DNA of 17,235 nt from Candidatus Thorarchaeota archaeon. GTDB taxonomy: Archaea; Asgardarchaeota; Thorarchaeia; Thorarchaeales; Thorarchaeaceae. The translations under genes and the position numbers were made by a program. The DNA lies in contig SDNP01000044.1 in NCBI GenBank assembly GCA_004524445.1, positions 1-17,235 of the forward strand, written 5' to 3'. The notes beneath the pieces are model-generated. The model made no database searches and had not been told where the DNA came from. It saw nothing but the letters and a program-made list of their open reading frames with translations. The number at the start of each line of letters is the position of its first letter. Position 1 is the stretch's first letter. Shown here one piece after another: positions 621 to 5,005 of this stretch.

Positions 621-2774
621 TCAGATTTTGATTGTAATCCGTTGACGTAGGTCAGGCATCATGATACCTTTGGGGATTTCTGTTGATGGAGTATGAACAA
701 TGATCGGCTTTCCCTTGCAACTGTCGATATACTGCGTTAGATTTCGGGATGACGAATGCGCACTCAGGCGAGCATAAGCAACGTCACAATCATGTGGTTC
801 AAATCCATTGACCAGATTCCATCCGGGTGTTCTTGGAGCAAGATACCCACAAGGGATAACAGCTGCATTTGGATTGTTACGGTGCTGCTTGAAGTGATAG
901 CGTGCTAGCCCTCCTCCCATCATCCCTCCACCAGCGACCAAGACATCGTATTTGTCCAAGTCCACTTTGTTTTTCTTCATGCCATCCCATTTGCCCTTGA
1001 GCCCAACCATCTTGGTTATTCGTTCTGCTAATCCAGCTACCATCACATTTCGTTTTGAAGTGACTCCAATCTCATCTAATATTTTGAGGACTTCTTGCGA
1101 CCTTCCAACTGCGAAACTGGGGATTATGACAGGTCCATGCTTCTCTATTGACTCAGAGAGGAGTTTTGCAACCGCCGCACGATTGAAGTCTTCTCTTCCC
1201 CAATAGGTGCCATCAAAAATCACATAATCACAGTCGGAGGGCAGAGTTGCCCCAGCGAATAGAACCGATTTATCCAGATTGAAATCTCCCGTATAGAGAA
1301 TCCGGAGGCCTTCGATATCAATAATATATGCCACACTACCGGGAATGTGACAAGCATCGACAGGTGTAGCTATAATCCCGGGACCAACCTCGACACTCTT
1401 TCCTTTTTCAAGAGAAACATGATTCTTTGTCACTTTTGCAACGTTTTTGCCAGTGAATTTTGAAATGAGATCTCTTTTGTCTTCTCTCCTCGGAGGTAGA
1501 GGTGTTCCAACCTTGAGCGCGTCTTCTAGTAATTCCTTTGTGATTGCTCCCGTAACTCCTGTGGCACACCATTTACCCTCATAGGAATCAAACAGAATTG
1601 GTAGTCCGCCAATGTGGTCCAGATGTGCATGAGATATCAAAATGCTGTCTAGAGCATCTAATTCAGGAATCCATTCTGGAATTCTTTGATTCGCTACAGA
1701 AAGGCCAAAATCCAGGAGAATGCTTCCATTGTTGGTCTTGATAACGATACCACTATGTCCAATCCGTGGGCCTCCTATGAAGATGATTTCAATTTCCTTC
1801 GTATCCATGGCATAGGCTACAGCAGGAAGTAAGTTCATTCTCATTTTCTCTGGGATCATCTCAAATACAACTGGGTCAATTTCCTCAGCAGGAGGTGGAT
1901 TAGGCAGTTTTTGAATTCTTACAGGCAAAGTGGAGTCTGGATGGCTCTGATATCCAATATTCTCAAACAGATGTCTGATTTTCTCATGAGTTGCAGAAAT
2001 AGTTGCTTGCCTATCCAGCTCGTCGCTAACGGTTTCGTATGCTTCTTCTTTTGCCGTATCATGAATCTGCTGTAGCATACCGTCCGGAAGCCAATCTTTG
2101 ACAGCTTCGTAAACCTCTAAGAATGGTCTTCCGCGAACAGCTTCATCAGTATAGTCTGGATATTTGTGTAGCGATTCAACTAATCGATACTCCTCGCTAG
2201 CAATCTTCTGATTAAGGTCAATACCCCATTGCAAAGAGGGTGCCACAAAATCGCTAGCTGGGAAAAATGGAGTTCCTAGAAAATGGAGCCAATGGCGTAT
2301 ATTCTCCAGATGAGAATCTTCATCCTTAGCATGGGATGCAGCAAGCATAGAGATGAGACTTTGTAGATGCTTGTGAATTTCATCAGTATTCATTGATTTT
2401 CGAAGTGAATATCTGTAAAGATATCGAAAATCCTCATCTGTATAATTGCCTACGAGTACACCAAAAGCACAAAGATTCATAGCTTCTAGAAACTCATCTG
2501 TTCCTTGTCCATCTACTTCATCCCGAAAAGTAAGCAAGAGATTTTCATGCACATCTCTAGCTCTTGGAAGGCAATCAGTTTCAACCTCTGACTTTCTGAG
2601 AAGTTCAAAAGGCAATAGTTCTGGGTTTTCGTTGAATATCGTGCTATGGTGAACTTCGAAATCTCCTTCAATAGCTGTTGTTGCGCTTTTCAATCCAGTT
2701 TCAAGAAGCTTGCTAACGGCTTCGTTCTCTACGTCAACAAGAAGGTTCTTTTTCAGTTCCATATCATTTTGCAT
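621..2774 (-). CDS. Metallo-beta-lactamase/beta-CASP family ribonuclease (aCPSF2-like) with ~325-aa unknown N-terminal domain
   Basis: All motifs present: LLDFG (1), SHAHLDH (2, HxHxDH), CHIPGS (3), YTGD (4), FDGTY (A), PSFAVGRSQE, GGGMMGGG, GYLAPRTPG, LSAH (B), IVH (C; His as in RNA-acting members). Start is ATG 2774 (overlapping the upstream stop) or ATG 2762. Confidence 0.88.
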   Translation of the reverse strand: MQNDMELKKNLLVDVENEAVSKLLETGLKSATTAIEGDFEVHHSTIFNENPELLPFELLRKSEVETDCLPRARDVHENLLLTFRDEVDGQGTDEFLEAMNLCAFGVLVGNYTDEDFRYLYRYSLRKSMNTDEIHKHLQSLISMLAASHAKDEDSHLENIRHWLHFLGTPFFPASDFVAPSLQWGIDLNQKIASEEYRLVESLHKYPDYTDEAVRGRPFLEVYEAVKDWLPDGMLQQIHDTAKEEAYETVSDELDRQATISATHEKIRHLFENIGYQSHPDSTLPVRIQKLPNPPPAEEIDPVVFEMIPEKMRMNLLPAVAYAMDTKEIEIIFIGGPRIGHSGIVIKTNNGSILLDFGLSVANQRIPEWIPELDALDSILISHAHLDHIGGLPILFDSYEGKWCATGVTGAITKELLEDALKVGTPLPPRREDKRDLISKFTGKNVAKVTKNHVSLEKGKSVEVGPGIIATPVDACHIPGSVAYIIDIEGLRILYTGDFNLDKSVLFAGATLPSDCDYVIFDGTYWGREDFNRAAVAKLLSESIEKHGPVIIPSFAVGRSQEVLKILDEIGVTSKRNVMVAGLAERITKMVGLKGKWDGMKKNKVDLDKYDVLVAGGGMMGGGLARYHFKQHRNNPNAAVIPCGYLAPRTPGWNLVNGFEPHDCDVAYARLSAHSSSRNLTQYIDSCKGKPIIVHTPSTEIPKGIMMPDLRQRITIKI

Positions 2775-3846
2775 CCTTATTATCTTCGTTTTCGGCTATT
2801 ATATTTATCATTGCATAGAGGGCTTGTCGACCATCCCTGAGAGAAACCCGCTTTTTTATGAGTCCTTCTGAGAGCAGCAAAGAGAGTGCATATCGCACTG
2901 TTCTTGGTGGAAGCATTGTTTCCTCTATGATTTGTTTATGTGTTAATTGCCCTTGATATTCCAGCATCTTGAGCACCAATTTCGCGCTGGGTGGCAAATC
3001 GTGGACGAGATCCTCTGTGATTTCTGCCTTTTTCATCAGTTTTCCTCTGAGTGCTGCTACCTTTTCTTCATCGAATTTTACGAATATGGCATCATCATCT
3101 GATTTTTGGATTACAACTGGGCTACCATCCACCCTGGTCCTAATCTGACCATCTAAGACAATTTCTGTAGGTACTGATTTGCTAAGATGGCGTATTTCTA
3201 CTTCCGTGCCTTCAGGTACAATGATTGGATGTCGAGATGGATTAACGCTGTTTACAGGAACAATAGCAAAAACTGCAGCAGTGTTCAGAACGACAGGTCC
3301 TCCAACACTCATGCTGTACGCGGTGCTACCAGTTGGAGTGGCTATTAGTAGACCATCGCTACCATCACTCCAGAAAGGCTCTCCATCAAGATATAGCTCA
3401 TATCGAATCAACGTCGCACTTCTTTTTGCAAAAAGTCCAATATCATTGAGGATTGGAGGAGATAAGTCCCCTGAGATGTTTGCAGTCAGTCTCGTTCGAG
3501 GATCCTTGGTCCATTTCTTATCCATTAGATCTTCAATAATTGTTGGAAATGAACTAATTGTCACGTCGAATAGAAAATCCGGCTGCCCTTTTGAGGAAAT
3601 TGGCAGGATTGGGATTGTTTTGTTCCCCAACTCCAGCAGCGTTCTCAACAACAGTCTATCTGAACCAACTATGATCAGAATATCGACATCAATGGCATTC
3701 AGATGGACGCCCTTTTCTGATATATTGTCTGCAAAGCTTTCCTCATAAATTACCTCGTCTCCATATTTCTTGATTTCTTCAACTACTTTCTTTGCGTCAT
3801 CTATCTGCGTTGTGCTTTGACCCGCGACGATACCGATTCTCGTAAT
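2764..3846 (-). CDS. NAD-kinase-fold protein with degenerate GGDG loop fused to C-terminal winged HTH (putative NAD(P)-sensing transcription regulator); non-canonical start
   Basis: The frame of track ORF 2764..3651 stays open to a TAG at 3879-3877 and encodes an NADK-like N-terminus (ITRIGIVAGQ...DVDILIIVGSDRLLLRTL). NADK motifs: LND, DGLLIATPTGSTAYSMSVGGP, LDGQ. C-terminal 'LPPSAKLVLKMLEYQGQLTHKQIIEETMLPPRTVRYALSLLLSEGLI..R...DGRQALY' is an archaeal MarR-like wHTH. GGAGG at 3855-3851 precedes ATT (3846) and ACG (3843). Confidence 0.85.
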   Translation of the reverse strand: MTRIGIVAGQSTTQIDDAKKVVEEIKKYGDEVIYEESFADNISEKGVHLNAIDVDILIIVGSDRLLLRTLLELGNKTIPILPISSKGQPDFLFDVTISSFPTIIEDLMDKKWTKDPRTRLTANISGDLSPPILNDIGLFAKRSATLIRYELYLDGEPFWSDGSDGLLIATPTGSTAYSMSVGGPVVLNTAAVFAIVPVNSVNPSRHPIIVPEGTEVEIRHLSKSVPTEIVLDGQIRTRVDGSPVVIQKSDDDAIFVKFDEEKVAALRGKLMKKAEITEDLVHDLPPSAKLVLKMLEYQGQLTHKQIIEETMLPPRTVRYALSLLLSEGLIKKRVSLRDGRQALYAMINIIAENEDNKDAK

Positions 3847-3998: not shown

Positions 3999-4030
3999 TT
4001 AGCCAATCCGTTCATACTCGATGTGAGTCC

Positions 4031-5005
4031 ATGGACGACGAACTCAGTGTACTTCAGAATAAGGTACTGGAACTTAAGAAGAAACGAAATGCGTTGATTC
4101 TTGCACATAATTATCAAACAATGGACATTCAGGAAATTGCAGATTTTGTCGGTGATTCGCTTCAATTGGCACAGACATCTGCAGAGGTACAGGGGTATGA
4201 CATGATTGTTTTCGCGGGTGTCAGATTTATGGCTGAAATGGCCGCCATCTTGGCAAAAAATACGCCCGTGTATATTCCCGAAACTGAAGTTCTATGTCCA
4301 CTAGCTGCCTTTGTGGACGCTGAGGTTGTATGCAAGAAGAAAAAGGAATACCCGGGTGTTCCAGTCATTGTTTACGTGAATACCACAGCTGAAACAAAAT
4401 CCGAGGCCGACATGATTTGCACAAGTGGTAGCGCAGCGGAGGTTGTGGAGGCAGCAAACTGTCCTCGAGTAATATTTGGGCCAGATTCGAATCTGGCTGA
4501 TTTTGTAAGAAAGAGTACCGATGTTGAAATCATTGATCTTGAACCATCAGGTCATTGTTATGTCCATCAGCGATTCACAGTTGAACAGATTGAGAAATTA
4601 AAGAAGCAATATCCGAATGCCATCGCAATCGCCCATCCCGAATGTCCTGATGAGGTACAGGAAGCTGCCGACCTGGTTGGCTCCACCGGTATGATGGTCA
4701 AGACCGTTGCGGAATCTGAAGCTGACACATTTTTGATAGCTACAGAGATGGGCCTAGTTCACCAACTTCAAAAGAATAATCCAGAAAAAACGATAATCCC
4801 GGTTTCGGAGGATGCGATCTGTTTCACTATGAAGCGGAATACATTGAAGGGCATATACAATCTACTGAAGAATCTGCCCGAAGAGAACCGTGTTACTGTA
4901 CCAGAACACATGGTCCAACACATAAAGAATATCTTAGATGAAATGAATCGAGTGAAGGGTAATGGAAAGGCTGCGAAAGTGACTACCAAGGCAACTACTA
5001 GTTAA
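4031..5005 (+). CDS. nadA: Quinolinate synthase NadA ([4Fe-4S])
   Basis: AHNYQ, GDS, FAGVRFMAE, VYVNT, CTS, HPEC, GST and ATE motifs; three cluster Cys (LCPLA, HCYVH, ICFTMK). ATG 4031 (after GTGAG, downstream of the TATA box) is preferred over TTG 3941. Confidence 0.96.
   Translation: MDDELSVLQNKVLELKKKRNALILAHNYQTMDIQEIADFVGDSLQLAQTSAEVQGYDMIVFAGVRFMAEMAAILAKNTPVYIPETEVLCPLAAFVDAEVVCKKKKEYPGVPVIVYVNTTAETKSEADMICTSGSAAEVVEAANCPRVIFGPDSNLADFVRKSTDVEIIDLEPSGHCYVHQRFTVEQIEKLKKQYPNAIAIAHPECPDEVQEAADLVGSTGMMVKTVAESEADTFLIATEMGLVHQLQKNNPEKTIIPVSEDAICFTMKRNTLKGIYNLLKNLPEENRVTVPEHMVQHIKNILDEMNRVKGNGKAAKVTTKATTS

Follow-up and report, generated by a model that had tools for sequence, protein, structure and literature searches.

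A NAD-kinase-fold protein with a winged helix-turn-helix as a candidate regulator of NAD synthesis in Thorarchaeota and other archaea

In the genome of a Candidatus Thorarchaeota archaeon (GenBank assembly GCA_004524445.1), a gene that joins a NAD kinase (NADK) fold to a winged helix-turn-helix (wHTH) domain lies divergently from nadA, the quinolinate synthase gene of de novo nicotinamide adenine dinucleotide (NAD) synthesis. Based on its fold, motif pattern and gene context, and on the conservation of an operator-like palindrome and its co-occurrence with the gene, we believe that this fusion is probably a NAD-kinase-derived, ligand-responsive transcription factor controlling NAD synthesis. 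The window that we analysed, a stretch of 17,235 nucleotides (nt), is contig C59 (SDNP01000044.1) of a 64-contig, 2.79-Mb genome that is 90% complete. An initial annotation, made from the letters of this DNA, had proposed a local NAD-synthesis regulator built on the NADK fold, and that proposal is supported by the conserved adjacency of the fusion to nad genes, by a candidate operator that tracks the fusion, by replacement of the catalytic GGDG motif and by the presence of a separate NADK. The arrangement it described, with fusion and nadA divergent across ~185 bp, was confirmed by open reading frame (ORF), Pfam and NCBIfam assignments, the nadA product scoring 348 bits with NF006878 (cut-off 294); the spacer measures 184 nt when counted from position 3847 and 187 nt from the ACG codon that we propose as the start of the fusion.

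The two-part architecture of the fusion protein is evident from both sequence and structure comparisons. Pfam identifies NAD_kinase_C (E = 1e-22), a weak match to the NAD_kinase N-terminal domain, MarR_2 (E = 2e-5) and HTH_24; the helix-turn-helix (HTH) matches lie under the Pfam cut-offs (25.0 bits versus 27 for MarR_2, PF12802, and 18 versus 21.9 for HTH_24), and the HTH also has weak PDB sequence matches to PH0140 and 7fby. In the AlphaFold2 (AF2) model, built from a 30-sequence alignment and having a mean predicted local distance difference test (pLDDT) score of 84, a low-confidence linker (residues 267-278) separates the NADK fold (residues 1-265) from a three-helix winged HTH (helices 285-297, 302-309 and 313-325; strands 329-333 and 341-345). 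The top 50 Foldseek matches of this model are all NADKs (E down to 8e-28), with template modelling (TM) scores by target of 0.82-0.86 against 7mh7, 4hao and 1suw. No Nudix, 3H or NMNAT/RNK effector domain was detected by Pfam or NCBIfam scans of the fusion, and no riboflavin kinase domain either, Pfam giving NAD_kinase and HTH families only. A role in defence was considered and dropped, as PADLOC gave only weak Csa3-type HTH matches. When modelled as a homodimer, the fusion scored 0.42 compared with 0.09 for the best control, the score mark applied being one that 20 of 30 proteins solved as one-chain pairs reach and 1 of 23 solved as single chains; contact agreement between runs was at least 66%, partner pLDDT at least 77, and the interface falls in the C-terminal NADK domain (residues 152, 173, 178, 181-193 and 205-213). 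This pass may simply reflect likeness to known structures, since NADK dimers have already been solved.

Alignment to solved NADKs places GSDR in the fusion where the catalytic enzymes have GGDG, and the second Gly-rich motif of the N-terminal domain, N-x-G-x-[LV]-G-F-[LM], reads SKGQPDFL, versus N-RGTVGFM in the canonical NADK of the same genome. The motifs of the C-terminal domain are intact (NDI with N133, D163-G164, TPTGSTAY at 169-176 and DGQ at 231-233), and these we take, in line with the structural literature on NADKs, to be the dinucleotide (NAD) site. Because GGDG is replaced while the C-terminal-domain motifs are kept, the NADK-like domain would appear to serve as a sensor. Conservation across the family, measured on 30 sequences of 29-62% identity, is concentrated in two places: invariant residues are found in the C-terminal NADK domain (N133, D163, G164, T169, G172, S173, T174, Y176, S179, G182, D231 and G232) and in the wHTH (P284, P285, K288, R314, T315, V316, R317, D337 and R339), where hardly any variation is seen in PPSAK or in the recognition helix (L-P-x-R-T-V-R-x-A-L) and the D and R of the wing do not vary. 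The N-terminal domain has two invariant columns only, G60 and L66. At the GGDG position, 26 of 27 sequences from the Thorarchaeota family of the window (f1) have GSD[RKH]; the corresponding motif is GNDK in family f2, GDDG in Baldrarchaeota (f6), GD[TA]G or GGTG in Heimdallarchaeota (f8), GGAA in f30 and mostly G-x-D-[RK] in TACK members (Brock-, Kor- and Thermoproteota), leaving f5 as the only lineage in which GGDG is kept, there together with an intact GNLGFL.

The host genome also encodes a separate canonical NADK of 310 amino acids (aa), with GGDGT, on contig C10; the fusion is thus not its only NAD kinase gene, whereas a sole, fully active NAD kinase is what the initial annotation had named as speaking against a regulator. 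Canonical paralogues were recovered from this genome and four others, at least three of them fusion-bearing, and all five read GGDGT; in a tree, a branch supported at 100/99 separates them from all fusions. We also noted two further NAD_kinase_C proteins of ~380 aa in the same genome (G000:C42:4022-5158, plus strand, and G000:C29:75702-76856, minus strand) that have GGDGT and no HTH. Judging by their sequences, they look like a separate ATP-NAD-kinase-like family, which would give the genome four NADK-fold genes.

These motif and paralogue data bear directly on the alternative that the fusion is a bifunctional ‘trigger enzyme’, still an active NAD kinase (perhaps with an altered phosphoryl donor) as well as a DNA-binding regulator. 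There is precedent for such a protein in RbkR, an archaeal riboflavin kinase/wHTH regulator (Rodionova et al. 2017; PMC5397151), which is an active, essential kinase and a regulator at once. The alternative is further favored by the motif Asp, which is kept in most family members, including f1 with its GSDR and most TACK sequences, and by the unaltered motifs of f5. Against it, both Gly-rich motifs of the N-terminal domain are altered in the window's protein, the Asp is lost in Heimdallarchaeota and f30, the N-terminal domain is nearly devoid of invariant columns across the family, and the best NCBIfam NADK equivalog score of the fusion (143 bits versus 326) is far below its cut-off, as it is under every other NADK cut-off. 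A canonical GGDGT enzyme is moreover present in the host genome and in three other fusion-bearing genomes from which a paralogue was recovered. We therefore regard a trigger enzyme as unlikely.

To place the fusion in its genomic context, we compared 40 loci of ~17 kb each from a sample of 400 genomes of the phylum, and further phyla were found by a pattern scan with the wHTH region, using one genome per species. Full-length relatives including the HTH occur in seven families of the 400-genome sample, among them 53 of the 85 genomes of f1, and the family as a whole spans Asgard, TACK and DPANN lineages, with the fusion architecture also occurring in cultured Vulcanisaeta. Divergent nadA was found in all 27 f1 loci, and in f2 and f6 as well. 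In Heimdallarchaeota, whose fusion proteins are 29-35% identical to that of the window, 9 of the 10 loci have a divergent nadA-nadC operon, and the remaining one is a short contig that ends beside the fusion; the fusion is likewise divergent from nadA-nadC in Brockarchaeota and Woesearchaeota, and a Thermoprotei metagenome-assembled genome (MAG) has nadA ~1.5 kb away on the opposite strand. For f26, in which none of 7 genomes was found to have nadA, a nicotinate phosphoribosyltransferase (NAPRTase)-like pncB gene, of the salvage route, adjoins the fusion in the two loci studied, as it does in the f30 locus examined (L055). The adjacency to nad genes whose absence from relatives would have counted against a regulator was thus upheld in Thor-, Baldr-, Heimdall-, Brock- and Woesearchaeota. 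Members of the family are named ‘NAD kinase’, ‘sugar kinase’ or ‘hypothetical protein’ in the source records. The wHTH part alone, at 45-58% identity and without the NADK-like domain, was seen in Methanolobus, ANME-2 and a haloarchaeal MAG (L186, L190-L193, L195, L200 and L202; Methanosarcinales and Halobacteriales), and the same DNA-binding module seems, from these sequences, to be present in another architecture there.

The spacer between the fusion and nadA contains two candidate operator sites of the form GGCAA-N3-TTGCC (Table 1). Among the 27 f1 loci, site 1 is exact in 24 and has one mismatch in 3, and its position relative to the nadA start is -88 to -97 (-88 to -93 in 26 of the 27). 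Both sites lie upstream of the B recognition element (BRE) and TATA box of nadA in 27 of 27 Thorarchaeota loci; site 2, with the consensus GnCAA-N3-TTGCC, follows site 1 at a distance of exactly 29 bp in these alignments and ends ~13 nt before the TATA box. The core GCAA-N3-TTGC also occurs upstream of nadA in Heimdallarchaeota, Brockarchaeota, Woesearchaeota and a Thermoprotei MAG, and one of the two f26 loci has it in the interval that separates the fusion from pncB. Measured from the centre of the nadA TATA box, the palindrome is ~19-24 nt upstream in Thorarchaeota, Brockarchaeota and a Thermoprotei MAG. The exact 13-mer has five copies in the host genome, of which four are inside ORFs and the copy at nadA is the sole intergenic one. 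At the nadB (C29), nadC (C56) and pncB-like (C50) genes of this genome we found no site with two or fewer mismatches, aside from one chance-like 2-mismatch match near nadC, and aspartate dehydrogenase (NadX) was not found in the 90% of the genome that is represented. A wider regulon defined by one-mismatch intergenic sites was also considered and rejected, the neighbouring genes being unrelated to NAD (MttB, CysS, TPR, PALP and zinc-ribbon proteins). Scans for sigma-70 promoters and terminators are not informative for an archaeon.

We found that the fusion is absent, from the syntenic locus as well as from the rest of the genome, in at least six Thorarchaeota genomes of at least four genera, and at their loci (L095-L102, in G320, G354, G392, G365, G394 and G333) it is cleanly missing between nadA and the downstream beta-CASP nuclease gene. 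Across 7 fusion-less f1 loci, no intact site 1 survives: it has disappeared or decayed, and the closest copy has 2 mismatches. These loci keep the nadA TATA box and the neighbouring TTGCC half of site 2, and also the TATA-like block of the fusion, which there faces the beta-CASP gene. Beyond f1, 19 fusion-less genomes from 12 other families have no core site within 450 nt upstream of nadA; G005, which carries the fusion elsewhere in its genome, has a site with 1 mismatch at -112 of nadA. The operator can therefore be said to track the fusion, since site 1 is lost, decayed or absent where the fusion is missing. The fusion-less Thorarchaeota loci amount to natural knock-outs and are usable for comparative expression studies.

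Enzyme genes of one pathway often cluster, and the fusion could in principle be a NADK paralogue that happens to stand beside nadA, with the palindrome bound by another factor or acting as a promoter element. Such plain pathway clustering fits the TTGCC half-site beside the BRE, which is still there in loci that have lost the fusion. It does not account for a wHTH recognition helix that is invariant across phyla in parallel with an invariant GCAA-N3-TTGC core, for the loss or decay of site 1 along with the fusion and its absence upstream of nadA in the 19 fusion-less genomes, for a core that follows the fusion to pncB in one of two f26 loci, or for the replaced catalytic motif, and we consider this explanation very improbable.

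Several points weigh against the fusion as a ligand-responsive regulator of NAD synthesis, for different reasons. In f5, f11, Vulcanisaeta, Terraquivivens and Methanodesulfokora, the 3-8 kb around the fusion contain no nad gene, and in the host genome the regulon predicted from site matches would be nadA alone plus the regulator's own operon. Considering the window alone, two sites are not above chance, since two or more matches also arose in 19 of 200 shuffles. A search of the spacer for inverted repeats with a 6-nt seed found none, the arms being only 5 bp, and the ‘several palindromes’ of the initial annotation amount to a perfect 13-bp site and a second of equal length with one mismatch; it is their conservation in other genomes, and not the window, that makes them significant. 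The TTGCC half of site 2 might belong to the core promoter and not to an operator, and the fact that the nadA promoter is otherwise unchanged where the fusion was repeatedly lost speaks against an activator that is indispensable. Some residual kinase activity could persist in the family, since the motif Asp is kept in most members. DNA binding, the ligand (NAD or NADP), the loss of kinase activity and the sign of regulation are all features that we infer.

With respect to the sign, we lean slightly towards activation that the end product would relieve, the mode put forward for RbkR; repression is possible and less likely, and a dual role is unlikely. RbkR is considered an activator, and flavin mononucleotide (FMN), the end product, suppresses its binding to DNA; its sites lie 1-12 nt upstream of promoter elements (PMC5397151). 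Activation is favored here because the site is directly upstream of the BRE/TATA in several phyla, which matches RbkR. The case for repression is made by a site in Woesearchaeota that overlaps the likely transcription start and by the fusion having been lost repeatedly while the core promoter shows no visible change. The locus concerned, L175 of a Woesearchaeota MAG, contains two complete palindromes: the first has its centre at -9 relative to the nadA start, downstream of a TTTTAAAA box, and the second is close to where the regulator gene itself starts, a layout that differs from that of Thorarchaeota. The -9 site has a repressor-like geometry, which counts against our lean towards activation.

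In the mechanism that we propose, the fusion would form a dimer, or a dimer of dimers, through the C-terminal NADK domain, which would set two wHTHs on GGCAA-N3-TTGCC. The two sites, 29 bp apart, lie between the presumed divergent promoters, the second directly upstream of the nadA BRE/TATA. The NADK-like domain, without the GGDG signature of phosphoryl transfer, would sense a dinucleotide of the NAD(P) type in the pocket that it retains where the two subunits meet. By this means the regulator would tune nadA, and with it de novo NAD synthesis, and would autoregulate its own operon; its targets in other lineages would be nadA-nadC or pncB.

Table 1. Coordinates of genes, protein domains and predicted regulatory elements in the window, with the neighbouring genes on the nadA side
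Feature	Position	Strand	Description	Basis or remark
Beta-CASP/metallo-beta-lactamase nuclease gene	621-2774	-	717 aa	downstream gene of the fusion's operon
NAD-kinase-fold + winged-HTH fusion gene	2764-3843 (stop codon included)	-	359 aa	proposed start ACG 3841-3843
Winged helix-turn-helix of fusion	2800-3006	-	residues ~280-348	AF2 model, conservation
NADK-like domain of fusion	3049-3843	-	residues 1-265	sequence alignments and AF2 model
Motif in place of NADK catalytic GGDG	3655-3666	-	G60-S61-D62-R63	alignments
Shine-Dalgarno-like sequence of fusion	3851-3855	-	GGAGG	7 nt 5' of ACG start
TATA-like block, presumed promoter of fusion/beta-CASP operon	3894-3902	-	plus-strand consensus CTTAAAT	intergenic alignment; inferred
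Candidate operator site 1	3936-3948	.	GGCAATTGTTGCC, perfect palindrome GGCAA-N3-TTGCC	cross-genome conservation
Candidate operator site 2	3965-3977	.	GACAAACTTTGCC, one mismatch	centre exactly 29 bp from site 1 centre
nadA TATA box, after conserved block G-GATTT	3991-3996	+	TTATAA (consensus TTAAAA)	intergenic alignment; presumed promoter
nadA, quinolinate synthase gene	4031-5005	+	324 aa	Pfam NadA E = 4e-100
Haloacid dehalogenase (HAD) phosphatase gene	5013-5675	-		syntenic on nadA side in the family
Inorganic pyrophosphatase gene	5754-6314	-		syntenic on nadA side in the family
Gene for protein without Pfam match	6380-7021	+		syntenic on nadA side in the family
Class I/II aminotransferase gene	7852-9090	-		syntenic on nadA side in the family

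The start codon of the fusion was assigned by comparison with orthologues. Its reading frame is open across 2764-3876 on the minus strand, with no ATG, GTG or TTG before 3651, and mechanical ORF calling cuts the protein to 295 aa. In 21 of 30 Thorarchaeota loci (L005-L034), ACG occupies the codon that is aligned to the ATG or TTG of the others; GGAGG precedes the aligned ACG, ATG or TTG by 7-9 nt in the 30 loci, and three have an in-frame stop one or two codons upstream of it. The fusion therefore most likely starts at ACG 3841-3843, judging from this alignment, and not at 3846 as first annotated, where the codon is ATT. A conserved ACG start would be an unusual initiation codon for Archaea, and a literature search on archaeal ACG start codons found nothing. 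It is possible that initiation at ACG is weak and thereby limits the amount of the regulator.

The gene downstream of the fusion encodes a protein with Pfam Lactamase_B and Beta-Casp matches, in which the metallo-beta-lactamase (MBL) and beta-CASP part covers residues ~323-654. Its NCBIfam scores are far below the respective cut-offs (aCPSF1, 148 bits versus 580; Cas14, 145 versus 800), and its PDB matches (aCPSF, CPSF73, FttA and Cas14) span residues ~327-570 only. For the N-terminal domain (residues 1-320), no match was found in Pfam, NCBIfam or PADLOC; in the Atlas, a feature search gave no usable match and the structure matches were all below TM 0.31. This domain is present in 72 of 85 f1 genomes and in f2, with weak matches in f2, f11 and f31 and few others. 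The protein shares with aCPSF1/FttA and other beta-CASP RNases (2ycb, 3af5 and 9bct) the MBL + beta-CASP module including HxHxDH (SHAHLDH here), and differs at the N terminus, where, in place of the KH domains of aCPSF1, it has a 320-aa domain found mainly in Thorarchaeota and no KH domain.

The initial annotation had tentatively included this nuclease in the NAD system, noting an 11-nt overlap with the fusion that we confirmed (2764-2774, comprising the fusion stop codon at 2764-2766 and the beta-CASP ATG at 2772-2774). Since the two genes are spaced by -26 to +39 nt at each of the f1 and f2 loci, they are likely to be co-transcribed. The overlap and this spacing, which point to a single transcript from the promoter facing the operator, are the grounds for considering the nuclease a functional arm of the regulator that couples NAD status to RNA turnover. 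However, the tight operon is limited to f1 and f2, within one order, where the whole neighbourhood is syntenic and the HAD, pyrophosphatase, aminotransferase and upstream unknown genes are just as well conserved in place. The nuclease also remains directly divergent from nadA in at least six Thorarchaeota genomes without the fusion, does not occur at the sampled fusion loci of Baldrarchaeota, Heimdallarchaeota, Brockarchaeota, Woesearchaeota, f26 and f30, and has an N-terminal domain family that is essentially specific to Thorarchaeota. Thus, a role of the nuclease in NAD control is not supported and a functional arm of this kind is quite unlikely; we regard the nuclease as a lineage-specific operon partner only. 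More speculatively still, and with little likelihood in our estimation, sensor and nuclease might in Thorarchaeia form one autoregulated operon in which NAD(P) sets the level of an RNA-processing nuclease (for instance, for NAD-capped or other 5'-modified RNAs), with the conserved Arg/Lys of G-x-D-[RK] making the sensor read NADP(H) and not NAD, i.e. the NADP/NAD balance.

Among known systems, RbkR is the closest in design, by analogy and not homology: both join a cofactor-pathway kinase fold to a winged HTH in Archaea, and both have palindromes before cofactor biosynthesis genes and the regulator's own gene, just upstream of promoter elements. In contrast to the NADK two-domain fold, the riboflavin kinase fold of RbkR is unrelated and serves another cofactor, and the fusion family, known here from its sequences, has the catalytic GGDG replaced and coexists with a canonical NADK. 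NadK/PpnK enzymes (EC 2.7.1.23; Pseudomonas aeruginosa 7mh7/7qvs, Yersinia pestis 4hao and Archaeoglobus fulgidus 1suw) share the two-domain fold at TM 0.82-0.86, the NE/D, D-G-x5-TPTGSTAY-x5-GG and DGQ motifs and the predicted dimer interface in the C-terminal domain. The fusion departs from them in having GSDR for GGDG, an altered second Gly-rich motif and an added linker and wHTH, and it falls under all equivalog cut-offs and groups, in the tree, apart from the canonical NADKs with which it shares genomes. NadR, NiaR and NrtR, as well as Rex, which the initial annotation named, have been characterised in bacteria. Like the fusion, NrtR (Nudix + wHTH; PMC2330246), NiaR (PMC2330245) and NadR combine an enzyme or ligand fold of NAD metabolism with an HTH and act on palindromic operators to control nadA/B/C or pncB, the regulator gene often being divergent; unlike it, they are bacterial and have no sequence or fold relation to the archaeal family.

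A literature search for a NAD regulator with an NADK fold and HTH returned nothing relevant, and no described archaeal transcription factor for NAD biosynthesis was found in the literature searched. The fusion is a new family of a known design, in which an enzyme fold and an HTH together make a cofactor regulator. With a predicted 13-bp operator, a gene in cultured Vulcanisaeta and natural losses, the family is directly testable. If confirmed, it would be an archaeal transcription factor for NAD synthesis across Asgard, TACK and DPANN, and the NAD kinase fold would join the enzyme folds that have been recruited as sensor domains. It would also explain the second ‘NAD kinase’, ‘sugar kinase’ or ‘hypothetical protein’ gene in many archaeal genomes, a label that is then likely to be a misannotation.

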